DNA of 24,594 nucleotides from a virus (Duplodnaviria > Heunggongvirae > Uroviricota > Caudoviricetes): the IMG/VR virus record IMGVR_UViG_2609459839_000005; one strand, written 5' to 3'. Below are positions 1-24,594 of this stretch, piece after piece. Under the pieces are notes generated by a model. It made no database searches, was not told the origin of the DNA, and saw only the letters and a list, made by a program, of their open reading frames with translations. Positions within the stretch are counted from its first letter, which is position 1. Each line of letters begins with the position of its first letter. Both the position numbers and the translations under genes were made by a program.

Positions 1-1236
1 CTACGATAACCGCGCATTCAACATGGCTATCTGTTCGTCGTTCATGTCATCAATCCACATACCGTAAATTTCATACACCATCTGCGCAGTTTCATGCCCC
101 ATTTGGCTGGCTATAAATGCCGGGTTCGCTCCTGCCGTCAACAGCCAGCAGGCAAAAGTATGCCGCGTATGGTACGGATTACGGCGGCGAATACCAGCAC
201 GTTTTACTGCTGCATTCCACCTTGCCCCCAAACTGCTTACCGAGTAATAAGGTTTTTGTTTTCCGTTACACACCCTGGGCATGAAAACAAAATGCAGTTT
301 TTGCTTTTCGGTTCTGCCGTACTCCCGATGATAAAAGGTGATTTCGCTTTTGCGATGATGCCCGGTCAGTTTGTATTGCTCCTTCAGTGCTTCAAGAGCA
401 GGCTGCAGTAGTGTTACTGTTCGGATCCCGGCATTTGTTTTTGGGGGACCGAACATATCAAGTATCGTCAGGTTTCTTCTGACATTCACTATTCCCTTTT
501 CGAGATCCACATCCTCCCACGCCAGAGCTGCCAGTTCCCCGTGACGAAGTCCTGAGTAAACGGCAAATTTCCACAAGTTCTGGCTCTGTCCTTTTTCACT
601 TTCCATTAATGCATTGAATTCTGTTTTAGATAACGGATCAGGCTTTATTCTGTTTCGCTGTAATTTTTTTACTCCTTCAAATGGTTTGGTTGATATAAAT
701 CCCGACTGATACGCAAAACGTAACAGCGAACAGAGCAGGGCGATATAGTTATCAACTGTGCGTACGGTTCTTCCTTTTTTGTTGGATCTTGGATTATCCA
801 TGTAAAGCGTTTCTCCATGCAGCAGTTCATTCCGGTAATTTAAGATATCGCTATAACGAATATGTGATATCGGGGTACTTTCACAAATTATTATTCTGAG
901 TGTTTTTAATTGTGATTTCGTTTTCTTCATTGTGTTTGTTGTTAACTCTGTCTCTTTAATTTTTGTCCAGATATCACAAAGCTCCCCGAACGTTTTTATG
1001 ACTCTCGTTGTCACCATTTTTGCTCCAGTGCTGGACTGGGGAAAACGTCTTAAATACTCAAATTCACCGGAGTTTATTTCATGAACTATCAGCGCTCTTA
1101 AATTTCCGGCCTTTTTAATATTACTGTTTGTAATCTCCCAGCCTTTTAATGTTTCCCGACATCGTTTTCCTCGAAACATGAACCAGATGCGAATGTATCT
1201 ACCTCTAATCTCGACACCTGTTGGTAATTTAGACAT
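1..1236 (-). CDS. intR: Phage tyrosine integrase (site-specific recombinase), 411 aa
   Basis: Full ORF with stop at 1-3. C-terminal tyrosine-recombinase signature (...HTRHTFACWLL...MGHETAQMVYEIYG) and lambda-Int-like N-terminal arm. First gene of an int-xis-ralR-recT-recE (Rac-like) block. Symbol from synteny and recollection, not a search. Confidence 0.88.
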   Translation of the reverse strand: MSKLPTGVEIRGRYIRIWFMFRGKRCRETLKGWEITNSNIKKAGNLRALIVHEINSGEFEYLRRFPQSSTGAKMVTTRVIKTFGELCDIWTKIKETELTTNTMKKTKSQLKTLRIIICESTPISHIRYSDILNYRNELLHGETLYMDNPRSNKKGRTVRTVDNYIALLCSLLRFAYQSGFISTKPFEGVKKLQRNRIKPDPLSKTEFNALMESEKGQSQNLWKFAVYSGLRHGELAALAWEDVDLEKGIVNVRRNLTILDMFGPPKTNAGIRTVTLLQPALEALKEQYKLTGHHRKSEITFYHREYGRTEKQKLHFVFMPRVCNGKQKPYYSVSSLGARWNAAVKRAGIRRRNPYHTRHTFACWLLTAGANPAFIASQMGHETAQMVYEIYGMWIDDMNDEQIAMLNARLS

Positions 1237-1237
1237 A

Positions 1238-1453
1238 TCATGATTCTTTGATAAACTGATTTATCTTTGGATAGTTGTACCAGATAATTCCTCGTTTGCT
1301 GTCTGGCTTACCTAAAGGAGATACTCGTTTGAAGTGGAAGCCCTCCACCCAACAGTTCTGGCGGTATGCTTCAATTTGTCTGGCCCCCAGACCAGTGCGA
1401 AGCATCAGGCCGTATTCAACCATCCACTCTTCATTAAAGATTACTTGTGCCAT
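1238..1453 (-). CDS. Excisionase-like small DNA-binding protein (about 71 aa)
   Basis: Small ORF directly upstream of int on the same strand. Internal ATG at 1453 ([10 protein letters not shown]...) follows GAGGTG 5 nt upstream, so the track start at 1477 is probably too long. Size, position and a W/R-rich winged-helix-like pattern fit Xis. Confidence 0.55.
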
Positions 1454-1552
1454 CGCATCACCTCTGGCAGGCGCCAATGTTAGACTGAAATTGACGCCCG
1501 ATGTTGATTATTAATAATCAGCTATGAAGTTTTAATTTGAATACAATGCAAC

Positions 1553-1741
1553 TCACGAGGACTGAAGTTTCTCGCAATTAAAATTAATCAGTTTTACTTT
1601 CTGCTCTCTGGAAACGCCTGCTTCTTTTTTACCTGAGAGCATTTTTTCGCATTCTGATTTCGTTAGTTTAGATTTTGAATATCTTGTCCAGTTAGTAGGA
1701 GTGCCACCTTCCTTTTCAATAGTGGCGGTAATTTTATACAT
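1553..1741 (-). CDS. Hypothetical small protein (YdaC-like by position)
   Basis: Track ORF 1553..1813. Preferred start is ATG at 1741 (MYKITATIEKEGG...), 6 nt after GGAG and overlapping the stop of the upstream Lar-like gene. No recognisable motif. Confidence 0.4.
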   Translation of the reverse strand: MYKITATIEKEGGTPTNWTRYSKSKLTKSECEKMLSGKKEAGVSREQKVKLINFNCEKLQSS

Positions 1742-1991: not shown

Positions 1992-3095
1992 TTAGGATCC
2001 GATATATTCTGGTTTCATATCTGTCAGTGTCGTTTTATACGCCTCATATAATTCACCCAGATGTGGTCGAGCAGCATTCAGCGTATTTTCCAGAGCAGTA
2101 AATTTTTGTTCTGCTTCTGGATCACCTGATGAAGGCAGGTCATTTATCATCTTCTCGATACTGGCAATAGCATTGAGACGGTGATGACGCCGAACCACTT
2201 TTCCTTTAAGCTCGGCAAAGAATTCGCCGATCTGGTTTTTCTGATCCTCTATCTCTTGGCGTAATGCAGTGGTTTCCTCAGTCGTGGCCGCGCTTTCGAC
2301 ACGCTGCCGGAATTCATCAATCCACGCTTCGTCAATACGCTGTTCGATGGTTTCTGTTCGCTGCTCGCTTACCTCTCTATAATTCTGTACCGGCACAGGA
2401 TTGATGATTTTTTCCTGTGGCTCTTCCAGTTCGTCCGGGGTATACACGCCCAGGATGACGTCAGGACAATAAAGGCGAGCCCAGTATTTCAACGCCAGAT
2501 AGGCGAGCTGTTGTTTCGGGTTTGAGGTCCATAAAGGAGAATTACGCGTAATCACGCTGGAAAGAAACACCGGTTCTCCCCAGGTAATCTCACTTTCACC
2601 GCGAAGAACTGCACCAACTCGAACGGATAGACCATACTCATCTTCACTGGTCCAACATGGGATCGTTTCTTTTTTCTCATAGATTCCGCCTCCTTTGGCC
2701 GTTTTCTTAACGGTCTCCACTCGGGTGCGAGAGCATTTCTCCCAGTCTCCCTCGTACTTGTAATGGAAGCGGCCTACAATTGCACTTGAGCTAGAGATCA
2801 CAGCGTTAACAAGTTGTGCTTCATAACCCAGAACTCCGTTTACCAGGTGTGTTTTCTGAGCCACAGCGTAGGGGTTCATGCCCCATTGCATGGCTTGCAT
2901 GATGATTGCCATGCAGTCGGCAGGTTTTCCGCGAAGGTGATCGGGAACTGTGACGGTGGCCTGTGACATCAACCCGGCTACTTCCTGAAGTTGCGTCAAC
3001 GCCTGAACGTTAAAAATAGTGTTACTGGCAGAAATGGTATTTGGTGTCTGCTCTGTCGTGATGATATTGGTATTTTGCATGGTCAGGTTCTCCAT
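1992..3095 (-). CDS. recT: RecT/Bet-superfamily single-strand annealing protein, 367 aa
   Basis: Core resembles RecT/Bet annealing proteins (…CMAIIMQAMQWGMNPY…GVLGYEAQL…). Its ATG overlaps the stop of the upstream exonuclease gene (TAATG), typical of recE-recT coupling. Longer than K-12 RecT, with a C-terminal extension. Confidence 0.68.
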   Translation of the reverse strand: MENLTMQNTNIITTEQTPNTISASNTIFNVQALTQLQEVAGLMSQATVTVPDHLRGKPADCMAIIMQAMQWGMNPYAVAQKTHLVNGVLGYEAQLVNAVISSSSAIVGRFHYKYEGDWEKCSRTRVETVKKTAKGGGIYEKKETIPCWTSEDEYGLSVRVGAVLRGESEITWGEPVFLSSVITRNSPLWTSNPKQQLAYLALKYWARLYCPDVILGVYTPDELEEPQEKIINPVPVQNYREVSEQRTETIEQRIDEAWIDEFRQRVESAATTEETTALRQEIEDQKNQIGEFFAELKGKVVRRHHRLNAIASIEKMINDLPSSGDPEAEQKFTALENTLNAARPHLGELYEAYKTTLTDMKPEYIGS

Positions 3096-6000
3096 TAAGC
3101 CAGATGCAGTGCTTCAAGACGACGAAGATCAAAGTCGTTTAATTCGTCGGTATAACTTTCGGTAATCGGTGCTGGCCAGTTGTTTGTCTCTAGGGCTTCG
3201 TTTATCTGGCGTAGCGTCCGGCGATATTCCTGTCGACCAAGTTCCAGGAGTTCCTGCGAGGCTTCCACGACTGCCACCCAGTGATAGCCAACATCTTTGT
3301 TGACGAAGATCCAGAAAAATTTGTCCAGGTTTGCCACATCACAATACATTGCGGCGCTGAGGTGATAATCACGCTCAATAATTTCACGGTGCAGGCGATC
3401 TTTAAGTCGTTCCTGCCGCACATAACCGAGGCTGACTGACTTCACGTCAGCGCAAATGCTTTCGTATGGCAGCCGGATTTCGATATCAGGACGGACCCTG
3501 ATTTCCAGCCCGGTTTCTTCATCAAACCCGAAATAGCTGATTTCAGATTTGCGATCCGGGTGGTTGAGTAGCCTTGCTGCATCGGTATTGTTTTGCAGTG
3601 CCGCGTGAATATTTTTTGCCTGTTCATACATATCCGCACTGATAAACGTTTTCCCGGCGTTTTCTTCTTGCTGTCGTTTTTGCCAGTCCTCCAGTGTCAC
3701 CAGTTCCGGGCGAATTTTCCGTGCGATTTCGGTTAATTGCTCTTTTGTGCCACTGATGTTGTAAGGCAACGATTTAGCACGTTCTTTTTTTGCCAGTTCT
3801 GGATCTACAGTTTCAATTTGCTCCAGAAGCTGCTCCCGTGTTCCACTGGTTTTCAGCAGAGGAGGGAGGCTTGCGTTGTATTCTTTAATACAGGCTTTCA
3901 TTGCTGATGCTGTGTGTTTTTCCCCCTCAGGAATACGCCGAAATTCCTCCGGAAGCGAACCGTAAAGGATGCCTGTTTCTTCGGCCCCAGCGCTTACCGA
4001 CAGTGGCTGTATAAGAATGCTGTTGTAGCTTTCGATCCACTCTTTCATCTGCTCTGGTGTCATCAGTGATGGCAGACTGGCATTGTGTTTTTTAATGATG
4101 GTGATCAGTTCGTTAGAAGTAGTAACCACATATTCAGGAACCGGTACCGGAATGGCATATTCATCAGCGAATTTATCCGTTTCCAGAACATAGCTGTGAA
4201 TGATCCGCCCACGCAGCAATGCATCACTTTCCTCGTTCGGAATAGTCCCGGCAATGTGCCGCCCGTGGTAATACATCAGACTGATGCGGGCATCCTTCAG
4301 CATTGTGCTGCTTATTCCGTTGGCGGAGTGATAAACCTCGTTCGGGAGGTTTTCATAGCGGCCAGGCTCGAAATATGACGGCCACATGATTTCAGTTGCT
4401 ACATTAGCTGACGCTTCACCAGTTTCATCACTGCAATCGTGATGCGGATGGTTGCCAGCATTCTCCTTGTGTGGATGTTCAGCGCTTTCCATTTCCTCCG
4501 GATCATTTTCCTGAACTTCAACCTGATTCTCTTCATCGAATGTTTCCTGGTATGTTGCGTCGCCCATCACCGCACCACAATCAGGGCAGTTGCCGCCGTC
4601 GGTCTGACCGCAGGCGGCGCAGGCTTTTTCCGGCTCCTGTTGCGTTATTGGCTCGGATTGTTTCGTTTCTGGCTCGTTTTGTTGCGCATTTCGGCTGTTT
4701 TGTTCCGCTTTCTGGTCGTTCTGTTCCGTTTCTTGCTGGTTCTGATTCACTGAATCGCGGGTTTCAATCCCCTTCACCCATTTCGGATCGTTCGGGTCGC
4801 TAATTCCGTCAACAAATTCACCACGTGATGCAGCAAGTAATTTATCGGCATCGACAGGATTTTTTGATGGAATGTTTTTCCGGGCTTCATGGAGTTCTGC
4901 CCGCAGTTCCTGATATTTCGCATCAACAGAATTTACCTGTGACTGAGCATCCAGCGGCTGCGTGTCCTGATGATGTTCAGTTGCATTCGGTTCCACTGTT
5001 TCAGCCGTTGCCTGTTCATCTGCCATTGCGCCAGATGGTTGTGGTTTTTCTTCATCGTCCTGTTTTCCTTCTTCTGTCACACGCTGCGGCATCGGGGCAG
5101 AGGAGCGACCGCAGGCAATATCCACAATTTCCGGATCAGGGTTGGCATGATCAGTTTCAGTCAGTACTTTGTTCAGATATTCAGTGACGTGCGCGGGGAT
5201 GACCTCGATCCCAATTGGTGCTTCTTTCACGGACGCAACCACGGTGGCGCGGGAATAATCCAGCCCGCCAGGCATGGTGATGAATTTGTCGCGGAAAACA
5301 GAAAAGGGCGGTTTATTTTCAGCGATAATTTCCTCAATGCGTTTAGCGTGTGCCGGATGAAGGTTATAGATGTCCACGTCCATTGAACGGGCCAGTACGC
5401 CAGTGGCTACATCGCGTGCCAGTGACGTCAGATCGTGGACGAAACCTTCGCCGCGATCGGTGAGGTTCCCGCCGCCAGCATTAGCACCGGAAGCCGTGCG
5501 AGTGATGCGTGAAACACGATTCCCTTTCCTCCATTCTTTTGTCAGAAGACCACGATCAATGTGTTCGGTATCCAGCCAGGCTGAAATGAAATTCTTAAAT
5601 TCATAGGGCTGATGTTTTTTCGTGATAGAGAAAACTGCCTTAATTGCATCAGTCAGGCGGAGCAGGGCGGCATTATCCAGAGTTGTCGGTTCTGCCATGC
5701 CGCGTATGGCCAACAGCAGATTCTGGACATAGCTGTTTTCCTGGTCCATCTCAAGAGCAGTAATGTGTTCGCGTTGTTCACGGGTGGCATGATGCAGGTA
5801 TTTCCGATCCCCGGCCGCATACGTAAAAATGTGCAGAAGACGCTGTGTGAACCGCAAAGTGGCTACAGAAACTTCGCAATCCTGGCAATCCCCGTGGGCG
5901 TCTGCCTGCGCGTTTTCTTCCTGGCCTCCCGCCAGTTCTTTGGTTTCCTGGGTATTCTCCTGATGGTGAACGTCGTCTGGTGCTGCACCCGGTTTTAGTT

Positions 6001-6262
6001 CCCAGGTGATGGAGTCCTTGCCGAGTTGATAGCGTTCACACCACGTAAAATCGATCTCACCTTCAGGGGGAAGGTCATTAACGACAGGAAAATTAGTTGC
6101 AACAGTTTTAAAATAGTTGCTCAGTTTTTTACCTGACTTAACGATCAGGTAGTCCAGAGTGGCACTGGTCGATTCAAAATCGTCGCTTGCCCACAGGACG
6201 ACGTCAGGTTCACCGGATGATTTTTTCGCTTTCCGTAAAAGGAAGAGTGGTTTTGTGCTCAT
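3095..6262 (-). CDS. recE: RecE-like exodeoxyribonuclease VIII, 1055 aa, with acidic low-complexity central linker
   Basis: Large ORF ahead of the annealing-protein gene. C-terminal third looks like a PD-(D/E)xK-type exonuclease domain (…[11 protein letters not shown]…DVKSVS…). Central Q/E/D-rich segment holds a CAACG…CPDCG Cys4 cluster. Start at 6262 follows GAGG. Confidence 0.68.
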
Positions 6263-6361: not shown

Positions 6362-6637
6362 TCAGATTTCACCGTTTAATTTCATTGCGATCAGAGTTGC
6401 CAGAAATCCAGCTTTTTTTTCTGCGGGCAGATTCTTTCCGATGTAAACCAGGCACATTTTTGTGACACCTTCATCAAGTGTTTTAACGTTGCCTGATGGA
6501 CCGTCGATATCAACCACAGTGAAAGGGGTTTCTTTATTTTCTGTTTTAATCACGTAGCCAATGCGCTTTCCTTCCAGATTCACCTCGTGAACAATGTCAT
6601 CGGTAGTTACAACAGTGGCTTCATAATTGGTAATCAT
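6362..6637 (-). CDS. racC: RacC-like small protein (91 aa)
   Basis: Track ORF runs to 6685, but the ATG at 6637 (MITNYEATVV...) follows AAGGAG with a 6-nt spacer. Sits between recE-like and kilR-like genes as in Rac. Confidence 0.55.
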   Translation of the reverse strand: MITNYEATVVTTDDIVHEVNLEGKRIGYVIKTENKETPFTVVDIDGPSGNVKTLDEGVTKMCLVYIGKNLPAEKKAGFLATLIAMKLNGEI

Positions 6638-6711: not shown

Positions 6712-6882
6712 TTAAAGTTCGTGTGCCATCTGGTCTTTTTCGGCACAGATTTCACTACAATATTTTTTCATTTCCGTCGTTGGTATAACTCCACGCATGA
6801 AATGAAGTGGTCTTGTAATGATTTTGCTTTCTTCAATTTCTTTATTGCAAAGGTGATAAGCACATTTTATTTTCTTAGTCAT
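6712..6882 (-). CDS. ydaE: Small Cys-rich protein (YdaE-like; 56-58 aa)
   Basis: Not in the ORF track (below 60 aa). Hand translation of the minus strand gives (MV)[56 protein letters not shown] with a CxxxxC…CxxxC pattern. Alternative start at 6888. Confidence 0.45.
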   Translation of the reverse strand: MTKKIKCAYHLCNKEIEESKIITRPLHFMRGVIPTTEMKKYCSEICAEKDQMAHEL

Positions 6883-7103
6883 TACCATGACTCCGCCTTT
6901 ACAGGTAAACCATCACGACCGAGGAAGACTTTAATCATGCAGTCAGAAATGCATGTTTTTGTAGTCAGGCTACGAATATAAAGTTTTCGCTTTTTAATAT
7001 TGTTTGCCGAGGCGATATATGTCCGACCTTCATGAAGAACATAATCGCCAGGGGTCACACACTGACGTGGTATTTCATCAGTTCCGAAGTGATGAGCAAT
7101 CAT
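6882..7103 (-). CDS. kilR: KilR-like cell-division inhibitor (73 aa)
   Basis: ATG at 7103 ([15 protein letters not shown]...) follows GGAG with a 6-nt spacer; the track start at 7115 lacks an SD. Small basic protein in the kil position of a Rac-like early operon. Confidence 0.65.
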
Positions 7104-7511
7104 AATTATCTCCATTTTTACAAATGAATTTTGTCGATGCGGTGCCTGGTGCCTCCAGGTGACGTTAACCAGTTAACAATTAACGCCGGATAATCCACCC
7201 ATAACACTGATGCTTTTAACTGCGCCGCGTGCGCTTAGCCGCATTCACCGCATCACAAAATTCACTTTAAAAAGGGGCGGCAGGGCAGCTACGGAGTAGA
7301 ACTGGTGCCGCCAAAAACTAGACACAGCAATGTCGTTATTTACAACCGGAGGCGCACTCCCACCATTTAAATTTAACAGACAAGACCGACTCTTTATGGA
7401 TACCGGAAATGCGCCTTCGTATTGTGCCCGGTTTTATTTCACCACCTCCGGGCTTTGGTGGCCTCGGCTATACCCCTACAGCAAGAATATTGAATTAATC
7501 CAATAAATGGT

Positions 7512-7664
7512 TTAGCTGGTATTTTTGGCAAGCCAGCGACGTGCGCCAGCTTCGGTTTTAAACGATTTGCTTTTGGTATACGTCATGGCGGTGAATGTGC
7601 CGTCCTGATTGGGAAACACGCCACATACCAGAGATTCGTTGTTGCCAAGATCGATAGTATCCAT
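7512..7664 (-). CDS. Small hypothetical protein (about 50 aa; YdaF-like by position)
   Basis: Internal ATG at 7664 (MDTIDLGNNESLVCGV...) is preceded by GAGG; track ORF is 7512..7727. No motif recognised. Confidence 0.35.
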   Translation of the reverse strand: MDTIDLGNNESLVCGVFPNQDGTFTAMTYTKSKSFKTEAGARRWLAKNTS

Positions 7665-7969: not shown

Positions 7970-8389
7970 TTACTCCGGTGGGGGATTATCTTTAAGCCTG
8001 CCTCTCAAATATTTTTCTACATACTCATCGATTTCTTTTAGCCGGACTTCAAATAGCTCAATCATTCGTTGTTGTTCTGAGCCCGGTAGCTGGTTAAACA
8101 ACTCAAGAAGTTTTCGTTGGGATTCATTTAACCACAATTCAGAAGATTCCTGTTCTCCAAAGAGGAGCTCAGGAGGAGATATGCCAAGTGCCTTTCCCAA
8201 TACGACAGCGTCATGCACTCCAACATTTCTGCTGCCCGCCTCATAGTTACCTATACGCGATTGCGTCCATCCGCAGATTTCAGCAAGTTTTCCTTGAGAT
8301 AAACCAAGCTTCTGCCTGCGCTCTTTAAGACGCATTGCAATTTTGTCATTGAGCCTACTAGCGGCAATTTTTTCGTTTTCTTTTTCCAT
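7970..8389 (-). CDS. racR: XRE-family HTH repressor (cI-like, RacR-like), 139 aa
   Basis: N-terminal helix-turn-helix (…LKERRQKLGLSQGKLAEICGWTQSRIGNYEAG…). Divergent from a Cro-like gene across a 96-bp region with inverted repeats. Confidence 0.75.
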   Translation of the reverse strand: MEKENEKIAASRLNDKIAMRLKERRQKLGLSQGKLAEICGWTQSRIGNYEAGSRNVGVHDAVVLGKALGISPPELLFGEQESSELWLNESQRKLLELFNQLPGSEQQRMIELFEVRLKEIDEYVEKYLRGRLKDNPPPE

Positions 8390-8400
8390 TGCATCCTTGT

Positions 8401-8461: not shown

Positions 8462-8485
8462 TAAAATTGTCATCGGAGGTTTTCA

Positions 8486-9000
8486 ATGAACAAAATTTCA
8501 ACATATCGAAAACAGCTTGGGCTGTCTCAAAGACAACTTGCTGTTCAGTTACCACATCACGCAAAGTGGCTTCAACGCTGGCAATGGCAATCAGCAAAGG
8601 TCGTCTGATTCGCGTAAATCAGGGCGGTAAATTTCGTTACTGCATACCGGGCGATAATTTACCAGCAGAGCCGAAAGCAGCATCGGTAGCGGAAACTGAT
8701 GGTAAGGCCTTTCCTCAGCCCGCAGGTGTTGCATTACCAGTACAGGAGGCTGCAACACAGGAAGATATTAAAACAGAAACGGTGGTGGACATTGTGCAAT
8801 CGCTGCCATCGTTTACTGAAACGCGAGCGGATGACCTGGTTTTACCATCGCTGCATATGGCAAACCGCGAACTGCGTCGGGCGAAAAATCATGTCCAGAA
8901 GTGGGAGCGAGTCTGCGCCGCGCTGCGGGAGCTGAACAAGCACCGGGATATTGTTCGACAGATTGTCGATTCCTCCAGTCGTATTGTGTCGGAAAAGTGA
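8486..9000 (+). CDS. Cro/YdaS-like early gene with disrupted reading frame (possible pseudogene)
   Basis: ATG at 8486 with GGAGG 8 nt upstream opens [22 protein letters not shown]…, which stops after 40 codons (TGA 8606-8608). The long track ORF 8455..9000 is in a different frame and has no SD at its own ATG. Confidence 0.4.
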
Positions 9001-15069: not shown

Positions 15070-15144
<75 letters not shown>

Positions 15145-15469: not shown

Positions 15470-15508
15470 TAAAATCATAGTGTTCTCTTCATGCCATTTT
15501 ATGCCATA

Positions 15509-16378: not shown

Positions 16379-16771
16379 ATGTCTGAACCCTTATCCGGTT
16401 CCGGCACGGCTGCGGCGCTGGGTGGCGCGACGGTATTCGGGCTGTTTACCGGGATGGATTTCGGGATTGTGTTTGGCGCGTTCGCCGGGGCGTTATTTGT
16501 GGCAACGATGCCGCAGTCACTTTCAGTCTGGCGCGTGGTGGCACATTTTCTGGTGTCGTTTATTGTCGGCGTGCTGGGAGCGCGTGTGCTGTCAGCCTGG
16601 ATTGCATCAAAAACAGGGTATGACGGTACATCAGCAGATGCGCTTTGCGCGGTGCTGGTCTCGGTTGTGTCGGTGAAGATTCTCTCGTTCATCCACCAGC
16701 AGGATATTGCATCGCTGGTGTCCGGTGTGTTCTCCCGCCTGCGGGGTGGAGGAGGCGGCAATGTTAAGTAA
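16379..16771 (+). CDS. Holin-like membrane protein (about 130 aa, Gly/Ala-rich TM segments)
   Basis: ATG at 16379 after AGGAGG. Three predicted hydrophobic segments, directly upstream of a second membrane protein and the endolysin remnant. Confidence 0.5.
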   Translation: MSEPLSGSGTAAALGGATVFGLFTGMDFGIVFGAFAGALFVATMPQSLSVWRVVAHFLVSFIVGVLGARVLSAWIASKTGYDGTSADALCAVLVSVVSVKILSFIHQQDIASLVSGVFSRLRGGGGGNVK

Positions 16772-17036
16772 CCTTCCCGGATTGCTGAATGTGGTGTTAT
16801 GCACAGTTATCGTGCTGACGCTCTTTTTTTATCGTCGCCGTGATTCCAGACATAAACCGCTGGTGTCATGGCTGGCCTGGCTGCTGATGCTGCTGTATGC
16901 CTTTGCGCCCCTCAGTTATCTGTGTGGTCGCCCGTTAGCAACGGGCTGGCTGGAAGTGTTTTTTAACCTGCTGTTCTGCGTGCTGGTGATACGCGCACGC
17001 GGGAACGTCACAAAAATCTTTCCATTGTTGAGGTGA
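16761..17036 (+). CDS. Second small membrane protein of the lysis cassette (holin/antiholin-like, 91 aa)
   Basis: ATG at 16761 after GGAGG, overlapping the previous gene. Two or three TM segments and a basic stretch (YRRRDSRHK). Confidence 0.45.
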   Translation: MLSNLPGLLNVVLCTVIVLTLFFYRRRDSRHKPLVSWLAWLLMLLYAFAPLSYLCGRPLATGWLEVFFNLLFCVLVIRARGNVTKIFPLLR

Positions 17037-17038: not shown

Positions 17039-17254
17039 ATGTCGGGTAAATTCAGATTTAGTCGTCGCAGCGAAAAGAATCTGGAGGGCGTTAAACCACA
17101 GCTGGTTGCTGTCGTTCGCCGTGCGCTGGAGCTGACGGAGGTTGATTTCGGTATTACGGAAGGGCTGCGCACGAAAGAACGCCAGAAACAGCTGGTCGCG
17201 GAAGGGAAAAGCCAGACCATGAACAGCCGCCAGCTTTATAGCGTGGATAGATAA
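17039..17254 (+). pseudogene. Truncated endolysin (T5-type L-alanyl-D-glutamate peptidase, M15 family), N-terminal about 70 aa only
   Basis: MSGKFRFSRRSEKNLEGVKPQLVAVVRRALELTEVDFGITEGLRTKERQ… matches my recollection of the T5 Lys N-terminus. ORF stops at …TMNSRQLYSVDR, where the catalytic SxHxxGxAxD motif should be (His replaced by Gln). Confidence 0.6.
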
Positions 17255-17615
17255 CAATGCCGAGTCTTGAGGAATTATTCCTGCGCAGCAGTGCATCGTG
17301 CAGCAGATTTACCCGGACTACTATGTGAACATGGTTCAGCAACAGTTTGCCGGCTATTTTGCATCATTGGCAATTTCAAAGGTAGATGGAGCAGATAACC
17401 CCACCTATAACATCGATGTTGTGTTTTTTAATGGGACCAGTTACCGGACGCAGGTGCCGGTATGAATCACAGTTTTATGATAAAACTTTTACCTTGGTTT
17501 GGAGTGCTGTAGAGAGATATTTTAGGGGAGGCGAGTAATTTTCTAAGCTGGAGCATATTGACATATATTATTTCGGATTTGCAAAATACAGATTGTAACC
17601 ATGGAGGAGACAAGC

Positions 17616-18776
17616 ATGGAAAATTTTGCAAATAAGTTAAAAATACACACAGAGCATGTTGCAAAAATGGGGGTGTTTTGTACAACTGAAGAAACGACAA
17701 AACAAGCACTCATTATGCCATTACTAGATATTCTTGGTTTTACTCCGTATGATCCAAGAAAAGTCAAAGCTGAGTATAGTGCTGACTTCCCCGGGGTTAA
17801 GGCTAATGAACGGGTTGATTACGCTTTATTTTGTCATGATGTTCCTGTGATGTTCATTGAGGCGAAATCGTTTTCAGAACAAATTGATAATCACTGCCCA
17901 CAGCTATCAAGATATTTTAATTCAACACCGGAAGTTACTATATCAGCCATTACAAATGGTGTTGAATGGCGTTTTTTTACGGATTTGAAACAAAAAAACA
18001 TAATGGATTCAACGCCGTTTTTAAAATTAAGAATGGATTCTCTAACTCACTCCGATATTACACAATTATTTCGTTTTCGTTATGATAAATTCAAACCAGA
18101 GGCTTTACGGACACTGGCTGAAGAAAGTGTTTATTTGAATTCATTTACTAAAACAATCAGTTCTAGTCTTCGTGAAGTTGATCTGGAGTTTGTTCGATAT
18201 GTTGCTAGTCGTTCAAATATTGAGAGGCAACTTAATCAGAGATTTCTTGAGTTCGTGACTCCATTAGTTAAACAGGCCGTTGAGCGCGCTGTTAGCGCAA
18301 TGGTGGTTTCCGGGCTATCTACACAACCGGTAGAGCAAACTAAAGAAAATGATGCAACGGATACACAAGTTAATAACGCCATTGTTGATGAAGAAAACCC
18401 CAACATAATAACCACAGCCAAAGAATTGGAGCTATTTGAAAGGGTAAAACAAATCATACAAACAGAAGATAATATAGAATATAAAGATACTGAGTCATAT
18501 TTCGGTGTACTATTGAATGGTAAAACTAATAGATGGCTGTTAAGATTTTATGATAAAAAATCTTCATTTATAACTTTACCTATTTCGCTTAGTGAAGTTC
18601 AGTTGAATGAAATAAGACGAGCTCGACTTGATACGGATGGTAAAAGGATACATATAACTAATCCGGAAGATATACTTCGCATATCTGGTTTGATTCTGGA
18701 TTCATACGAGTATGTTAAAAATGATGATAATTTCCGCCGAGGGTCCAGAGTGAGCAGTTTAGAAGAGGTTGAATAA
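17616..18776 (+). CDS. 386-aa protein with N-terminal HsdR-N/Mrr-like PD-ExK nuclease motif and uncharacterised C-terminal domain
   Basis: N-terminus …TKQALIMPLLDILGF…KAEYSADFPGVKANERVDYALFCH-DVPVMFIEAKS… gives an E…D-x13-E-A-K arrangement. ATG at 17616 after GGAGGA. AT-rich (about 35% GC in a sampled stretch), own promoter candidate and a strong terminator. Confidence 0.68.
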   Translation: MENFANKLKIHTEHVAKMGVFCTTEETTKQALIMPLLDILGFTPYDPRKVKAEYSADFPGVKANERVDYALFCHDVPVMFIEAKSFSEQIDNHCPQLSRYFNSTPEVTISAITNGVEWRFFTDLKQKNIMDSTPFLKLRMDSLTHSDITQLFRFRYDKFKPEALRTLAEESVYLNSFTKTISSSLREVDLEFVRYVASRSNIERQLNQRFLEFVTPLVKQAVERAVSAMVVSGLSTQPVEQTKENDATDTQVNNAIVDEENPNIITTAKELELFERVKQIIQTEDNIEYKDTESYFGVLLNGKTNRWLLRFYDKKSSFITLPISLSEVQLNEIRRARLDTDGKRIHITNPEDILRISGLILDSYEYVKNDDNFRRGSRVSSLEEVE

Positions 18777-18816: not shown

Positions 18817-20043
18817 ATGTCAGAAATACCAATTACTATGACCAGTGCGGGTGCGCAGCCTACGCCACCCAATGATTTGCTCGCGAATCTTATCACTAGA
18901 GTTGCTGAAAAAGTACCTGGATATACAGCCAACCTTCCGGCGGGGCTTATTACAGACCTTGCCAGCACGGCTGTCGGGGCGCTGGCATTAATAGACCAGG
19001 CGCGGGTGGACCTTATTAACTCCGTAAGCCCATACGGCGCGAATATTCCGTTACTGATGCAACTCGGAAACATATATGGAGCACAGAAGGGATTAAGTAC
19101 AAATACGGCGGTATACGTGGTGTTTGAGGCGTTGCCGGGGTTTGGTATCCCTAAAGGATTTGTTGTCGGTGACGGCAACTACCAGTATGCGGTTTCCCGC
19201 GATACCGTGGTACCGGAAAACGGGCAGACTGAGCCAGTCTACTGTGTGGCCACAACGTCAGGCTCATGGGCTGTACCGGAAGGGACCGTGACGCAGGTCA
19301 TTACCTCAGTACCCAAAGACCAGCCTGTAAAATGCACCAACTTTACCGCAGGAATGCCCGGTCAGGAGGCGCAAACGTGGGCATCTTACCGCGCCGAAGT
19401 CATGGAGTCCGGCATGTTTGGTGTGCAGGGAACACCGGATTGCTTTAAAGCTATGCTCAAATCAGTAAGCGGTGTGCGAGAAAACCTGATTTCTTTCCGG
19501 CAGTCGTCGCTGGGGAAATGGGTTGCGGTTGTTGGTGGCGGTGATCCGTATGATGTGGCTTATGCGATTTACAAATCTGTACCGGATATTTCGAAACTGA
19601 CCAACGATGTAAGCAATCCATCCGGTGCGGCAGTGGAAAAACGCACGGTTTCAATAACCGTTTCGCCGGACGTTTATCAGGTGCCTTTCGTTATCCCGTC
19701 ATCACAAAACGTCATGGTGCTAATCACCTGGAACACGGTGTCTGATGATTATGTTGATCCGGCGGGTATTGCTATGGCTGTGCAGCAAAACGTTGCTGAT
19801 TACATCAATTCAATTGAAGTCGGACACCCGATAAATCTTCTGCGTATCCAGGATATTTTTACCAGTTCTGTCAGGTTGCTGGTTGATGCGACGTTGATCT
19901 CAACAATCAGTGTGAGCATTGGTATTAACGGTCATATTGTTCTTCCGGCGAAAGACACAAGCCTGGTTTATGGCGATACCTATTCCTATTTTTCAACGGT
20001 GGCATCACAGGTTCAGGTCAACAAGTATGCAATATCTGACTGA
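18817..20043 (+). CDS. Baseplate J/gp47-like protein, 408 aa
   Basis: First gene of a co-directional tail block; size and position fit a Mu/P2-type baseplate protein ahead of a DUF2313-like gene and fibre genes. Assignment from module context. Confidence 0.5.
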   Translation: MSEIPITMTSAGAQPTPPNDLLANLITRVAEKVPGYTANLPAGLITDLASTAVGALALIDQARVDLINSVSPYGANIPLLMQLGNIYGAQKGLSTNTAVYVVFEALPGFGIPKGFVVGDGNYQYAVSRDTVVPENGQTEPVYCVATTSGSWAVPEGTVTQVITSVPKDQPVKCTNFTAGMPGQEAQTWASYRAEVMESGMFGVQGTPDCFKAMLKSVSGVRENLISFRQSSLGKWVAVVGGGDPYDVAYAIYKSVPDISKLTNDVSNPSGAAVEKRTVSITVSPDVYQVPFVIPSSQNVMVLITWNTVSDDYVDPAGIAMAVQQNVADYINSIEVGHPINLLRIQDIFTSSVRLLVDATLISTISVSIGINGHIVLPAKDTSLVYGDTYSYFSTVASQVQVNKYAISD

Positions 20044-20653
20044 GAAAATTCTCCCTGCTTATCCATTTGCGCAGTACAGAGATGATCCGAATGTTGTTGC
20101 GTTCTTTGATGCATACAATGAAATTGCTCAGGAATACCTCGATTCACTCAACAATCTGGCATTGCCATGCTGGACATCGGAATCAATAACCGGGCAATTA
20201 CTGGACTGGATTGCACTCGGGATTTATGGCGTTGAAAGGCCTTTACTACAGGTTTCCGAGGAGGCTATTGCACGCGGCGCATACGATACCATTGAATACA
20301 ATACGATCCCGTATGCAGCAATGCGGAATTATGTTCCGGGGCAGGCATCGTATGTACCTGATGATTATTTCAAACGAATATTAACGTGGAATTTTTATAA
20401 GGCTGACGGTTCGCATTTCTGCATTGACTGGTTAAAGCGCCGTGTGGCGCGGTTCATTCATGGGAAAAACGGAATAGACCCGCCGTTGCAGCACACTTTT
20501 GATGTGAGCGTGACTGTATCGGACAGTGTTTTTTCTATTCAGATACCAGAATATGGTGATGGTATAGGCTATTTTCTGAAAGATGCCATTGACCAGAAAT
20601 ATGTAAAACTCCCTTTTATTTATTCCTATGCAACAACGGTGATTCAAAAATGA
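20027..20653 (+). CDS. Tail protein (Mu gp48 / P2 gpI / YmfQ-like), about 208 aa
   Basis: Internal ATG at 20027 (MQYLTEKILPAYPF…) chosen because the track start at 19919 overlaps the upstream gene by over 100 nt. Lies between baseplate and fibre genes. Confidence 0.45.
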   Translation: MQYLTEKILPAYPFAQYRDDPNVVAFFDAYNEIAQEYLDSLNNLALPCWTSESITGQLLDWIALGIYGVERPLLQVSEEAIARGAYDTIEYNTIPYAAMRNYVPGQASYVPDDYFKRILTWNFYKADGSHFCIDWLKRRVARFIHGKNGIDPPLQHTFDVSVTVSDSVFSIQIPEYGDGIGYFLKDAIDQKYVKLPFIYSYATTVIQK

Positions 20654-22200
20654 TTCTTGGATTCGGCAATAACGTTGTTTCAGCACTGGCTGGTGATATT
20701 ACGACGATTCAGACTGATATTCCGGTGATGCCGGGCACGGGAGCTAAATTTGCAAAATTGCTTTCTGCCGATTTTGAAAATAAATCGAACGGGCAACGCG
20801 TCTATGCAAAAATTACGCTTACCGATAATAAAGAGTCAGCGTTTGAGATTTGTCACCTGGTATCGGTAAGCGGTGATGTGCTGAAAGTCATTCGTGGGCA
20901 GGAAGGAACAACCGCGAAAGGTTGGTCCCTTAATGACGTTGTGGCTAACTTTGCCACACGTGGATCGGAAAACTATTTCGTACAGATAGCGCAGCTTCAG
21001 AGCGGTCATTATATTGCAGGTGTCGCTGGCGGCACTGCAAATGCACTGACGCTGGAGCTTCCCGCGACGTTTTTTGTTAATGGAGGTACAGATTGGACGC
21101 TACGAACTCCTATTATCGTTTTCCCCGTTCAGAACAATACCAACGCCGCAACGCTTCAATTGACACTGGGCGGAAAGGTTCTTGGTACGTTTCCACTTTA
21201 TAAGGGGAACAAGTCCGGGCTGGTAGCGAACGATATCATTAAAGGTATTCCCTTAATTTGCCTTCTTGATAGCGAGAAAAGCTATTTCAGCGTGATAAAC
21301 CCCGGCAATATCTATTCAGATTTTGATCTGCGATATGTAAAAAAATCTGGTGATTTGATGACCGGGGAGCTGAAAATCCGTGGTGTTAATGCACTGAGGA
21401 TTTTCAACGACGCTTTTGGTCTGATTTTTCGTCGTTCGGAAGAGTGCCTGCACCTTATTCCTACCAGTGAAGGTCAGGGCGAGAATGGCGATATTGGTCC
21501 ACTTCGACCGTTCACTATTAATCTGCGGACGGGTGAAATATCCATGTCGCATAAAGTGTCTGTTGGCGGTGGTTCTCAGGTCAATGGTGCGCTGGGTATC
21601 GGCGTTCAGAACGCGCTGGGCGGAAACTCAATTGCTTTCGGGGATAACGATACAGATATAAAACAAAACGGCGACGGCATTCTGGATGTTTATGCGAATG
21701 GACAGCATGTATTTCGTTTCCAGAATGGTGTGGCGATAGCGTTAAAAAATATTCAGGCCGGAAATGCTAAAAAATTCACGTTATCCAGCGCCAACAACTC
21801 AACGAAAAACGCAACGTTTAATTTATGGGGCAATTCGTCCCGTCCTGTAGTTGCAGAGCTTGGTGATGATTCCGGCTGGCATTTTTACAGCCAGAGAAAT
21901 ACGGATAACAGTATAACGTTCGCTGTAAACGGACAGATGGTCCCGTCAAATTATGGAAATTTCGATGCCCGTTACCAGACCAAATCAGGGGGCGTGCAGA
22001 ATTTTCAGTACACCAGTGAGGTGTTTTACAACCCTGGTGGGAATGAGCGCAGCTGGACGTTTCGGGCACCTTCTGGTTGTGTTTTGTCAGGCATTAATGT
22101 TCAGGACACTGGCAGTAACTCTGCAGATAATATCGGTGGCGTGTATTACAAACAGGCTCAGATTTATATCAATGGTGCATGGCGATCCGTATCAGGTTAA
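20650..22200 (+). CDS. Tail fibre protein, 516 aa
   Basis: Start overlaps the previous stop (ATGA). Gly/Asn/Ser-rich beta-type composition, immediately followed by a tail-fibre assembly gene. Confidence 0.55.
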   Translation: MILGFGNNVVSALAGDITTIQTDIPVMPGTGAKFAKLLSADFENKSNGQRVYAKITLTDNKESAFEICHLVSVSGDVLKVIRGQEGTTAKGWSLNDVVANFATRGSENYFVQIAQLQSGHYIAGVAGGTANALTLELPATFFVNGGTDWTLRTPIIVFPVQNNTNAATLQLTLGGKVLGTFPLYKGNKSGLVANDIIKGIPLICLLDSEKSYFSVINPGNIYSDFDLRYVKKSGDLMTGELKIRGVNALRIFNDAFGLIFRRSEECLHLIPTSEGQGENGDIGPLRPFTINLRTGEISMSHKVSVGGGSQVNGALGIGVQNALGGNSIAFGDNDTDIKQNGDGILDVYANGQHVFRFQNGVAIALKNIQAGNAKKFTLSSANNSTKNATFNLWGNSSRPVVAELGDDSGWHFYSQRNTDNSITFAVNGQMVPSNYGNFDARYQTKSGGVQNFQYTSEVFYNPGGNERSWTFRAPSGCVLSGINVQDTGSNSADNIGGVYYKQAQIYINGAWRSVSG

Positions 22201-22213
22201 TTAAGGAGAAATA

Positions 22214-22744
22214 ATGGAACTCGTAAACGTTACGCGTTACTACCCTGAAGATATGCCTTATGGTGAAGGCATTCAGTATTTCCGTAGTGAAGACGGGCAG
22301 GATTTTTATGAATCACTGGATAAGTTCACGAAGAAATACAAGCTGTGCACACATCCTGAAACCGGCGTTATTTATTCCATGGCGGAAGATGTATCCCGCC
22401 TTTATCCCGTTGGTTTTACCATTGTGGAAGTGGATGAACTACCGGAAGGATTTTGTATTGAAGCCCGCTGGTATTATAAAGACGGTGAAGTACTGCCGGT
22501 CCCTGTTGACTACCGGCAGCAGGCCGAGTCGGAGCGTGCACGTCTTACTGCGATTGCCGAACGGGAAATATCCGATAAGAAGACGGATTTACTTCTGGGA
22601 ATCATCAGTGATGAAGAAAAAGAAAAGTTGACAGCCTGGCGCATTTACGCGAAATCGCTGCAGGCGATGGATTTCAGCACCATCGCTGATAAAACCTCAT
22701 ATAACGCCATTGAATGGCCCGTCTCTCCGGAAGCCTCTTCCTGA
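22214..22744 (+). CDS. Tail fibre assembly protein (Tfa), 176 aa
   Basis: AAGGAG upstream. C-terminal …LLLGIISDEEKEKLTAWRIYAKSLQAMD… matches the conserved Tfa chaperone motif. Confidence 0.75.
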   Translation: MELVNVTRYYPEDMPYGEGIQYFRSEDGQDFYESLDKFTKKYKLCTHPETGVIYSMAEDVSRLYPVGFTIVEVDELPEGFCIEARWYYKDGEVLPVPVDYRQQAESERARLTAIAEREISDKKTDLLLGIISDEEKEKLTAWRIYAKSLQAMDFSTIADKTSYNAIEWPVSPEASS

Positions 22745-22767
22745 TTTAATTTATCGCGAGAAAAACT

Positions 22768-24594
22768 ATGTCTGTAGTGATATCAGGTGCGCTGATAGAT
22801 GGCGCAGGCATCCCCATGTCCGGATGCCACATAATTCTGAAATCCCGGGTAAACACCTCAGAGGTGGTGATGCGCACAGTTGCCGACGTGGTGACAGGAA
22901 ACTGTGGCGAGTACTGTTTTAAGGCGCAGACCGGAAAATATTGCGTATATCTGAAACAGGACTGGCGCGACGAGTACTATGTTGGCGACATTGCTGTATA
23001 CGACGACTCAAAGCCCGGCACGCTGAACGACTTTCTGACTGCCCTTGATGAAGGCGATTTAAAGCCGGATGTAGTGAAACGATTTGAGGAAATGGTGGTG
23101 CAGGCACAGCAGAGTGCTGAAATCGCAGCATCATGTGCAGAACAGGCAGGGCAAATATTAAATAACATCCAGGAGGTTGCAGGGCAGCTTTCCACAGTAC
23201 GCTTCGAAAATTTTAACGATATTAGCAGGCGGTGTACGACAGCCATGCTGAAGCTGGAACAACCCGAGGTTGTTAATACATCAATATCTTTAAAAATAAA
23301 AGAAAATATCGATTTTAATTATGTCGGTGCAGTTAACGGATATTGCGATATTCCTGAACCTGAAAAGTATAAAGTCGAAATGTATGCTTATACAACTGGA
23401 GAGTATTTTAACGGCGACGCTAATTTGAATAGTGACGGAACTTTCTATTTCAGACGTTGCTGGACGGGAGCAAAACAGTTTCGTCTTATTCGGATTGAGG
23501 ATAATGCGTGGATCACAACGCTGGAATTTCCGCTGCTCATTCGTAGTTACTGGATGCCAGAGGACGCAGATCCTGACGTGATCAGGGTGATGAAAGACCG
23601 ATGTTACACGTATGACCAGGCGCTGGCAGCACTGGCGTTGATGGTTCAGCGACATGAAGCTGTGGAAAGATACGTTTCAGGTTTGTGTGCACTTGTTGAT
23701 GAAAACGGCGGGGTGAAATTTTTTGTTAACAGGCTGTCGGCCATGTCTTCGCGCGCCTATTATCGACTGGGCAATGCGGCATGGGTTTACTATGCCCTTG
23801 CGTTCTATCTGGAGAAATACCCGGACGGAGCACAGGTAAATATTGTTCGGGCAAAGTTGTTATCTGGCATCAGCTGGCTGGATTCTTTCCTGGTAACCGC
23901 CCCTGGTGATTTACGTGAAGGCCTGTATAAAGGCGGCCTTGGTCGTTATGTAAATGGCGAATTTGACGCCAGTTTCGTTGCCGAATGGTGCGCACTGGAG
24001 CATAACGTTGATATCTGGTTTTTGTTTGAACTGATGGGGAGACTGGAATTTGACGGCTTCATTCAACGCGCCGATGCGCTGGCAAAAAGTATCATCAGGG
24101 GGTTCTGGATGGAAGAGGAAGGCCGGTTCCGGCAGGGAGTACACCCAACCAGTTATGATAACGCGGCGGCTCTCGATCAATCGTCATGGGGCGGGCTGTT
24201 TGTAGCGAATATAGACATGGCTAAAGCTGTACGTTGTCGTAAGTATATGGGGCGTTTCTTTTTTGGCACCCGCGAAGCCACGGGTTACACACCTTACCAC
24301 CCCGATTATGGATACAGTGGTCACAGTCGAGGTGTATGGGTGGAAGGGACCGCAGGAGTGGCACTTTTTGAGAGAAAGCTTGGAAACGAGGTTACAGCAG
24401 TGAATCTCATTGCAGCAATGGCACCGCTTCGTGATGAATACGGCTATCGTGATTCATGCGATGACCCGGCATATGATGTGCTCCCACCCTGGCCATCAAC
24501 AACAAACACGGCGTGGGTAATCCTGACAGTAAAACCTGATAATTTTTGGCTGGTAGATTCACCGATCATGGACGTTGGCATGATTCGATACTGA
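22768..24594 (+). CDS. Side-tail-fibre-like protein with enzyme-like C-terminal domain (putative polysaccharide depolymerase), 608 aa
   Basis: N-terminal about 120 aa resembles the conserved lambdoid Stf N-terminus (MSVVISGALIDGAGIPMSGCHIILKSR…YDDSKPGTLNDFL…). The rest is helix- and aromatic-rich (…AWVYYALAFY…LDQSSWGG…WVEGTAGVAL…), suggesting an (alpha/alpha)-toroid glycosidase-like fold. Stop is at the window end. Confidence 0.55.
   Translation: MSVVISGALIDGAGIPMSGCHIILKSRVNTSEVVMRTVADVVTGNCGEYCFKAQTGKYCVYLKQDWRDEYYVGDIAVYDDSKPGTLNDFLTALDEGDLKPDVVKRFEEMVVQAQQSAEIAASCAEQAGQILNNIQEVAGQLSTVRFENFNDISRRCTTAMLKLEQPEVVNTSISLKIKENIDFNYVGAVNGYCDIPEPEKYKVEMYAYTTGEYFNGDANLNSDGTFYFRRCWTGAKQFRLIRIEDNAWITTLEFPLLIRSYWMPEDADPDVIRVMKDRCYTYDQALAALALMVQRHEAVERYVSGLCALVDENGGVKFFVNRLSAMSSRAYYRLGNAAWVYYALAFYLEKYPDGAQVNIVRAKLLSGISWLDSFLVTAPGDLREGLYKGGLGRYVNGEFDASFVAEWCALEHNVDIWFLFELMGRLEFDGFIQRADALAKSIIRGFWMEEEGRFRQGVHPTSYDNAAALDQSSWGGLFVANIDMAKAVRCRKYMGRFFFGTREATGYTPYHPDYGYSGHSRGVWVEGTAGVALFERKLGNEVTAVNLIAAMAPLRDEYGYRDSCDDPAYDVLPPWPSTTNTAWVILTVKPDNFWLVDSPIMDVGMIRY

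Follow-up and report, generated by a model that had tools for sequence, protein, structure and literature searches.

A deletion derivative of a Rac-family prophage at the ttcA-uspF site of Escherichia coli

The locus and its three deletions

The viral record IMGVR_UViG_2609459839_000005, a stretch of 24,594 nt analysed here over its whole length (hereafter "the window"; coordinates on it are prefixed w where confusion could arise), very probably represents the interior of a ~25-kb defective Rac-family prophage that lies in ttcA with uspF adjoining, and that descends from a longer phage genome by three deletions, here called J1, J2 and J3. The window runs from the stop codon of intR on the left to the stop codon of the last fibre gene on the right. 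When compared as a whole by megablast with 5,426 complete E. coli genomes, its best match was a single record, that of E. coli 214-4 (96% covered, 99.1% identity), in which the matched region spans 47.8 kb vs. 24.6 kb in the window. This region of 214-4 is a prophage between ttcA and uspF. It carries intR, xisR, ralR, recT, recE, kilR, a repressor, a cro-like gene, ydaT, DnaT-like and P replication genes, nin-type genes, a Q-like gene, two tRNAs, holins and an M15 endolysin, and then ParB, the terminase, portal and head genes, those of sheath, tube, tape measure and baseplate, an HSDR_N gene named as "restriction endonuclease", baseplate J and fibres.

The insertion site is that of the Rac family, i.e., the 5' end of ttcA, with a 26-bp core and with uspF on the far side. 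The core (TTGTTCAGGTTGTATTGTTCTTTCTT) flanks both the K-12 Rac and the 214-4 prophages as attL and attR. A contig of the source lineage shows the attL core inside ttcA, with 25 of 26 bases matching, at 76-101 bp to the left of the window's first base; attR lies 380 bp past the right edge, followed by uspF and ompN. The attL of the source lineage (about 11310-11340 of locus L013) carries one T>C mismatch relative to attR (TTGTTCAGGTTGTATTGCTCTTTCTT), which is common to L012 and L015, relatives that keep the replication module.

Gene content was checked by PHROGs, Pfam, NCBIfam and Rfam scans and by mapping the 214-4 proteins onto the window. On the minus strand, the left arm reads intR, xisR, DUF1187, ralR (with RalA), recT, recE, racC-like, ydaE, kilR, a DicF/KilS-like small RNA (sRNA), DUF1391 and the repressor, and so combines orthologues of IntR and XisR with the ralR-recT-recE-racC-ydaE-kilR order of the Rac family. 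The right arm, on the plus strand, begins with a cro-like stump, a DUF1627 remnant, DUF977, two hypothetical genes, a cII-like/beta pair and hokD with sok, continues with DUF1367, YbcO, a Q-like DUF1133 gene, tRNA-Thr, tRNA-Gly, a TerB pseudogene, DUF3927 and two holins, and ends with an endolysin stump, a rac59 remnant, an HSDR_N endonuclease gene, baseplate J, a phrog_8212 gene, a fibre, a fibre chaperone and a second fibre.

Throughout its length, the window is colinear with the 47.8 kb of 214-4 and with phage Rac-SA53 except for deletions of 3,154, 11,658 and 8,535 bp, which together with small indels and a difference in the fibre cassette fully explain the difference in length. Blastn against the 214-4 prophage (locus L001) resolved five colinear blocks at 98.7-100% identity, a diverged fibre/chaperone stretch (w21729-22591) apart: w1-8551 (L001 1001-9550), w8550-17232 (L001 12703-21391), a small island at w17231-17277 (L001 33048-33094), w17276-21728 (L001 41628-46079) and w22592-24594 (L001 46782-48784). 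Junction alignment found a microhomology of 2 nt at each of J1, J2 and J3 (TA, CA and TA, respectively), which points to illegitimate rather than homologous recombination.

J1 (8550..8551; 3,154 bp missing by blastn and junction alignment against 214-4) removed the rest of the cro-like gene, ydaT (a cII analogue; PMC5917428), two small open reading frames (ORFs), a DnaT-like/O-like gene, replication protein P and 104 codons of DUF1627. The cro-like stump (8486-8608, plus strand) starts, by frame analysis, at an ATG at 8486 with GGAGG 8 nt upstream, and its 22 native codons are followed by 18 out-of-frame codons that run into DUF1627, yielding a 40-amino-acid (aa) peptide vs. 80 aa for the intact gene of relatives; the cut precedes the recognition helix, which is lost. 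Beyond the junction, the C-terminal remnant of the DUF1627 (ydaW-type) gene (8551-9000, plus strand) still matches Pfam DUF1627. An in-frame Cro::DUF1627 fusion at 8455-9000 was considered and rejected, since the true cro start at 8486 runs out of frame past J1; the 181-aa ORF from the upstream ATG at 8455 is open only through a 1-nt difference in an A-run (TTTAAAATTG vs. TTTAAATTG in 214-4). The 181-aa or 165-aa (ATA-start) "DUF1627" protein that gene callers draw at 8455-9000 is an annotation artefact. A consensus promoter scan of 8300-8700 returned one weak site, no more than in shuffles.

The second scar (17231..17277, by blastn and junction alignment against 214-4) is double, with J2 (17231/17232; 11,658 bp missing) and J3 (17276/17277; 8,535 bp missing) separated by a 47-bp island that derives from the boundary of two tail-region genes and keeps its native orientation. 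Because two independent deletions ending within 47 bp are improbable, we infer that J2 and J3 arose in one complex event. J2 cuts the M15 endolysin at the His codon of NSRHLTGDAVD, leaving a 71-aa product (17039-17254, plus strand) made of 64 of the 125 native residues and 7 foreign ones. M15 peptidases typically carry an H-x6-D metal-binding motif, and in the endolysin this motif is removed with everything downstream of the cut; the stump matches no Pfam family, the full-length protein of relatives being Peptidase_M15_4, and the 60-aa gene downstream is also lost. Right of J3, a remnant of a rac59-type gene (17277-17465, plus strand, by tblastn mapping) consists of the C-terminal 62 codons of a 115-aa gene that belongs to PHROG 7986 when intact.

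In addition to the catalytic part of the endolysin, J2 and J3 together took all genes from ParB and terminase up to and including the baseplate hub. PHROG matches identify among the lost genes the terminase small and large subunits, portal, head morphogenesis protein, tail sheath, tape measure (with a transglycosylase domain) and baseplate hub; the head protease and major head protein are assigned from weaker secondary PHROG matches, their top families having no assigned function, and the tube gene from its position only. The 478-aa product of L001 26512-27948, named "anti-CBASS protein Acb1 family protein" in RefSeq, matches portal proteins (phrog_146 at 252 bits, Phage_portal_3), and its Acb1-family name is probably a misleading automatic one.

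When 27 proteins of the missing regions of a full-length relative (4 from the replication block and 23 from the morphogenesis block) were searched by tblastn against the window, only the 47-bp island matched, and genes for replication, packaging, capsid, sheath, tube and tape measure are all missing from the window. It thus lacks the replication module, the complete lysis cassette and the terminase-to-hub virion genes of a full-sized Rac-SA53-type phage, and with three deletions mapped to the base it is a defective (cryptic) prophage, devoid of functions essential for lytic growth. The element can no longer replicate, bring about endolysin-mediated lysis, assemble virions or carry out packaging. 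An earlier note, made from the sequence alone, had already described a defective prophage with a Rac-type left arm, and this is borne out by the identity of its proteins to those of K-12 Rac (98.6-100% for IntR, XisR and the DUF1187 protein, 94% for RalR) and by the shared att core. Its observation that a lysis remnant directly precedes baseplate and fibre genes, with no terminase, portal, capsid, tube/sheath or replication genes, agrees with the mapping, family scans and tblastn; and at the right boundary, which it had left to be inspected, no morphogenesis genes lie beyond the edge.

All three deletions are genuine, of recent origin and confined to a single lineage. A J1-specific protein is on record in GCA_001912105.1 and in the Logan assembly of SRR1186308, and the 71-aa protein specific to J2/J3 in GCA_001912105.1, SRR9330559, SRR1186308 and ERR10505581; junction carriers thus comprise one draft genome and three sequencing runs, and this occurrence in independent data sets indicates that the deletions are real. 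Contig LGMR01000013.1 of GCA_001912105.1 is identical to w1-11236 and has one mismatch over w7039-24594. The J1 and J2/J3 junctions are found in none of the 5,426 complete genomes, which marks the deletions as lineage-restricted; the intact form, counted where no less than 80% of the 20-kb block absent from the window is present, occurs in 77 of these genomes. To either side of the scars, undeleted counterparts reach 99.95-99.99% identity, which implies that the deletions are recent: GCA_900448935.1 has 5 differences in 9,987 nt, covering both sides of J1 and the left of J2, and retains ydaT, DnaT, P and a complete M15 endolysin together with ParB, terminase and portal; right of J3, GCA_027225755.1 and GCA_049978845.1 differ from the window at 1 of 7,319 nt, with sheath, tube, tape measure and hub kept upstream. 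Retained proteins that map to 214-4 are 98.6-100% identical to it, the exceptions being hokD (94%), mosaic patches in the DUF1627 remnant and DUF977 (~91%), and a swapped fibre and chaperone.

Genes kept in the remnant

The left arm (minus strand throughout, except for RalA) opens with intact intR (1-1236; Pfam Arm-DNA-bind_2 and Phage_integrase) and xisR (1238-1453; Pfam DUF1233 excisionase), whose products match IntR and XisR of K-12 at 99.8 and 98.6% aa identity, and with DUF1187 (rcbA-like; 1553-1741; Pfam DUF1187). The ralR toxin gene (1734-1928; Pfam Lar_restr_allev; 93.8% aa identity to K-12 RalR) is accompanied by the antisense RalA sRNA on the plus strand (1557-1735; Rfam RalA, 223.8 bits, above the gathering score). 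Farther in, recT (1992-3080; 362 aa; Pfam RecT) is an SA53-type allele with 99% aa identity to that of Rac-SA53, and recE (3095-6262; 1055 aa; Pfam Exonuc_VIII and DUF3799 PDDEXK) is 95% identical at the aa level to its Rac-SA53 counterpart. K-12 RecT shows no tblastn similarity to the window RecT, and K-12 RecE matches the window RecE over residues 1-767 only, at 63%, the window protein having the DUF3799 PDDEXK C-terminus. Behind one conserved int-xis-ralR segment, the Rac family thus has two or more recET "business ends" that are not orthologous to each other.

The racC-like gene (6362-6637) and ydaE (6712-6882) are similar to those of K-12 Rac, as is kilR (6882-7103), which encodes an FtsZ inhibitor (NCBIfam PRK11354, 160.9 bits; 94.5% aa identity to K-12). 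Between kilR and DUF1391 (7512-7664; Pfam DUF1391) lies a DicF/KilS-like sRNA (7275-7326; Rfam DicF, 49.9 bits vs. a gathering score of 48) in a region that aligns with the annotated kilS sRNA of K-12 Rac, so that the early-left operon of the Rac family carries a DicF-like sRNA beside the gene of the FtsZ inhibitor. The prophage repressor (7970-8389; 139 aa; Pfam HTH_3 and HTH_31) is intact and 100% identical to that of the 214-4 prophage, with no match in K-12 Rac, so that the immunity type differs from that of K-12 RacR.

Past the J1 scar, where all genes but one lie on the plus strand, come DUF977 (9016-9438; Pfam DUF977 and mapping to relatives) and two small hypothetical genes (9435-9689 and 9682-9993; mapping to relatives) with no PADLOC match. 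Downstream of the cII-like/beta pair described below, a hok/sok RNA element (12322-12493; Rfam sok, 108.3 bits, above the gathering score) adjoins the hokD toxin gene (12491-12646; Pfam HOK_GEF). Like ralR/RalA, hok/sok joins a toxin ORF to its cognate antisense or regulatory RNA, as in type I toxin-antitoxin loci. Three intact genes follow, namely DUF1367 of the nin-type region (13206-13805; Pfam DUF1367), the putative nuclease YbcO (13805-14095; Pfam YbcO) and the Q-like late activator DUF1133 (14092-14634; Pfam DUF1133 and Phage_antitermQ). Downstream of the Q-like gene lie tRNA-Thr(TGT) and tRNA-Gly(TCC) (14991-15144; ARAGORN and Rfam tRNA) and a frameshifted TerB-family pseudogene (15717-16143; Pfam TerB fragment), whose frameshift is common to full-length relatives, an intact 141-aa version being present in L029; this slot (14991-16143) is where Rac-SA53 carries the pertussis-like toxin genes eplBA. 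DUF3927 (16140-16292; Pfam DUF3927) and two intact holin genes (16379-16771 and 16761-17036; Pfam Phage_holin_8 and Phage_holin_3_7; 100% identical to 214-4) lead up to the endolysin stump.

Two low-GC cargo loci are candidate defence genes, as judged from their domains and database matches. The first consists of an sce7726/P4 cII-like gene (10299-10871, plus strand; NCBIfam sce7726_fam; PADLOC cll, E=2.4e-28) and a Beta_protein family gene (10837-11934, minus strand; Pfam Beta_protein; PADLOC PD-Lambda-2_C, E=1.7e-41), which are convergent with a 35-bp overlap and have a GC content of about 36-39%. The pair also occurs in Rac-SA53 and full-length relatives, and its slot is filled by other genes in L021 and L029. 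The gop-beta-cII and PD-lambda-2 systems have three components, i.e., gop with beta and cII, or a HigB-like protein and an Xre-peptidase with a beta-like C protein, and relatives of the cII-like and beta proteins act in systems of the abortive infection or toxin-antitoxin type (PMC9519451; bioRxiv 10.1101/2023.04.06.535777). Beside the pair there is no gop, HigB-like or Xre-peptidase partner, so that two of three components are present and the locus falls short of either system, and no nuclease domain was detected in the pair. It could represent a two-gene variant of gop-beta-cII-type abortive infection.

The second locus is an HSDR_N endonuclease-like gene (17616-18776, plus strand; 386 aa; Pfam HSDR_N and HSDR_N_2; PHROG 4225 "endonuclease", 496 bits; GC ~36.5%), whose product combines an N-terminal HSDR_N domain (type I R-subunit N-terminal, PD-(D/E)xK-like) with an uncharacterised C-terminal part of ~250 aa. 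It occupies a variable slot directly upstream of baseplate J, in the same position as in full-length relatives, and has no PADLOC match; sequence searches of the PDB with the HSDR_N, beta and cII-like proteins returned nothing significant. All cargo genes are also carried by intact phages, and the remnant neither acquired nor specially retained any of them.

The right end comprises the baseplate wedge gene (Baseplate_J; 18817-20043; Pfam Baseplate_J, 30.7 bits; PHROG 6 baseplate wedge), a 208-aa tail gene (20027-20653; PHROG 8212, no Pfam match), a 516-aa tail fibre (20650-22200), a 176-aa fibre chaperone (22214-22744) and a second fibre (22768-24594), all on the plus strand; both fibres match PHROG tail-fibre families, with Pfam Caudo_TAP/phage_tail_N matches in the region 20650-24594. 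By tblastn, the baseplate J protein matched 20 of 50,697 phage records, namely Rac-SA53, pPE4, temperate phages of Yersinia, Klebsiella, Pantoea and Shewanella, and a few others, with neither P2 nor Mu among them; any likeness to P2-like or Mu-like tail modules is thus a weak one, at the level of the Baseplate_J superfamily only. The baseplate-fibre module is the contractile-tail module native to the Rac-SA53-type phage family.

A cassette at 21729-22744, made up of the chaperone and the C-terminal portion of the first fibre, is swapped relative to 214-4 (L001 46080-46934), the fibres being 81% and the chaperones 42% identical, and w21729-22591 has only a weak 228-nt match there (75% identity). 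The 516-aa/176-aa cassette is also present in the full-length prophages of GCA_027225755.1 and GCA_049978845.1, and its occurrence in the full-length prophages L033, L038 and L041 marks an exchange of host-range cassettes within the family. Between the second fibre gene (608 aa) and attR there is no chaperone gene but only a DUF4376 fragment (L001 48787-48897, L003 17557-17936); Rac-SA53 has a 1,061-aa fibre and a 187-aa chaperone there. The "full-length" relatives lack the chaperone gene as well, so that the right end of the family must have been trimmed before the present deletions.

Proposed history and competing explanations

The window belongs to an already known prophage family, as an ordinary deletion derivative that formed recently, and shows prophage decay of the ordinary kind, at an early stage. 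The ancestor was very probably a ~48-kb temperate phage of the Rac-SA53 type, with lambdoid regulation and a contractile-tail virion module. From it, J1 (3.15 kb) took the O/P-type replication genes together with the cII-like ydaT and the greater part of cro, and J2 and J3 (11.66 and 8.53 kb, 47 bp apart), likely in a single complex event, the catalytic part of the endolysin and the genes from ParB/terminase through the baseplate hub. Given the intact repressor and IntR/XisR and the near-perfect att sites, repression and excision are probably still possible. The repressor would keep the prophage silent; derepression would drive recET, kilR and ralR leftward, and Q would drive a shortened late operon of two holins, endonuclease, wedge and fibres, while ralR/RalA and hok/sok may stabilise the remnant. 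Selection against lethal lytic functions is a plausible cause of the deletions.

Several points weigh against this account. The window differs by 1 nt from the best public record, so that its source assembly is best taken as a sister of GCA_001912105.1. J1 may have arisen before or after J2/J3, and J2 and J3 only probably in a single event. The function of the retained genes is deduced from intact ORFs alone. Finally, kilR, hokD, ralR and both holins survive, which weakens the argument that selection acted as a "detoxification".

There is a practically negligible probability that the deletions arose as artefacts of assembly or scaffolding and that the prophage is full-length in the real genome: a 47-bp island between two large gaps does look odd and the window comes from a draft-quality lineage, but the junction proteins recur in separate assemblies and in Logan assemblies of different runs (GCA_001912105.1, SRR1186308, SRR9330559, ERR10505581), and with only 2 nt shared at the junctions a repeat-induced collapse would have no substrate. 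The earlier note had instead proposed a Rac-type early region joined to a foreign Mu/P2-type baseplate-fibre module and then domesticated by selection for host-beneficial genes, a history that we consider very unlikely. The family is indeed mosaic in general, since in L021 and L029 lambda-type Nu1/gpA/gpW heads accompany the same Q/lysis block, identical Q protein included, and cargo slots vary among relatives; toxin-antitoxin loci and candidate defence genes are among the survivors, and K-12 Rac is a precedent for a long-retained remnant. However, both sides of the lysis/baseplate junction are colinear in a single phage genome of many strains, so that the supposed join is a scar inside one genome, and in full-length relatives an identical right arm follows sheath, tube and tape-measure genes of their own. 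The "Mu/P2-type" label goes no further than the weak Baseplate_J match, given the absence of P2 and Mu from the matching phage records, and the cargo genes are standard equipment of intact phages rather than gains of the remnant. As for domestication, the deleted architecture is limited to a few assemblies, is absent from the complete genomes and is not seen across diverged lineages, and with an undeleted counterpart at least 99.95% identical there is too little divergence to measure selection or to demonstrate retention. Other parts of the same description hold in part: among the "dead lysis genes" the endolysin is truncated and its downstream 60-aa gene lost, but both holins are intact; of the "two nuclease cargo loci" the HSDR_N gene is nuclease-like, but the cII-like/beta pair is not detectably so; and the recombination genes, small toxins and cargo listed as survivors are present, but so are intact int, xis, repressor, Q and nin-region genes.

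Two further readings assign the remnant a function. It might be a helper-dependent, satellite-like element, with int/xis, immunity, Q and fibres kept for mobilisation or for fibre borrowing by a superinfecting Rac-like phage. Its int, xis and att sites and its late operon with two fibre genes are intact, and helper-like full-length relatives exist in the 77 complete genomes mentioned above; but the terminase small subunit region, the expected location of pac, was deleted along with replication, there is no sign of satellite hallmarks, and the element is a very recent derivative rather than a conserved architecture, all of which makes this reading extremely improbable. It is also tempting to speculate that the deletions were a selected "grounding", in which cro and the cII-like ydaT, replication, endolysin catalysis and virion genes were shed as lytic-growth functions, and a repressible, excisable island with toxin-antitoxin loci, the cII/beta pair and a rewired late operon of Q, holins, HSDR_N endonuclease, baseplate wedge and fibres now serves abortive infection or fibre donation against superinfecting Rac-like phages; we think this very unlikely, and regard early, ordinary prophage decay as the better description.

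The element carries little weight on its own. Its value lies in offering a base-resolved snapshot of the first steps of prophage decay, with the ancestor state still circulating at no less than 99.95% identity. The two forms make a natural "before and after" pair, usable to ask which prophage functions go first and how loss of cro/ydaT, replication and endolysin affects host fitness, immunity and excision. For annotation, the case advises caution: where the genes of a prophage jump from lysis to baseplate, a deletion scar is a simpler reading than modular mosaicism.

Comparison with known elements

The full-length ancestor type is already known, having been deposited as phages Rac-SA53 and vB_Apl-pPE4, and "full-sized Rac-like prophages" were described by Jobling (PMC5917428). 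In comparison with these, the window has 23.3 kb less, lacking cro/ydaT/O/P, the endolysin C-terminus and the packaging, head, sheath, tube, tape-measure and hub genes. Rac-SA53 (KU052037, the LT-IIa prophage; Jobling 2016, as cited in PMC5917428) has the same site, att core and gene order from intR to tail fibres as the window. Most retained genes have products that are 90-100% identical between the two; lower values apply to the chaperone (85%), the holins (84 and 68%) and the Q-like protein (75%), and the second fibre is a further exception. Rac-SA53 differs in its immunity repressor and in the content of three slots, i.e., eplBA after Q (vs. the tRNAs and TerB pseudogene), LT-IIa after the endolysin (the window has no LT-II), and ant with two ORFs on the other strand before baseplate J (vs. 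the HSDR_N endonuclease). The 214-4 prophage (NZ_CP025840) is closer, with 98.7-99.7% DNA identity to the window. "Actinobacillus phage vB_Apl-pPE4" (PP818812, L031; host A. pleuropneumoniae) is ~95% identical to the E. coli Rac-site prophages over the virion module and has a Rac-type recET/kil/ydaT layout, and its host assignment looks doubtful.

Other, independent decay products of the same family are known at the Rac site, lacking parts of the virion module or of the immunity region, and none has J1, J2 or J3. MB06101 (NZ_CM129890) has a truncated holin joined to a tail gene and keeps the tape measure, GCA_027984685.1 (L025) lost recE through DUF977 and most of the tail, and L014, L016 and L017 carry IS1 in the immunity region. 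The e14 element of K-12, suggested earlier as a comparison, is integrated at icd and has an analogous layout only, with a lambdoid early region beside baseplate and fibre remnants; tblastn found no match between it and the 33 window proteins at E<=1e-4.

K-12 Rac (b1345-b1375) shares with the window its site (ttcA/ttcC-uspF) and 26-bp core. DNA identity is 98% over intR-xisR-rcbA-ralR/RalA and ~89% over racC, ydaE, kilR and the kilS/DicF-like region, with no DNA similarity right of w8688, and K-12 Rac has a different RecT, RecE C-terminus and repressor. It keeps ydaS/ydaT/ydaU/ydaV, has lost Q and the holins, and contains trkG, IS5, lomR, stfR and pinR. Both K-12 Rac and the window are thus deletion remnants of a larger phage, reached through independent deletions.

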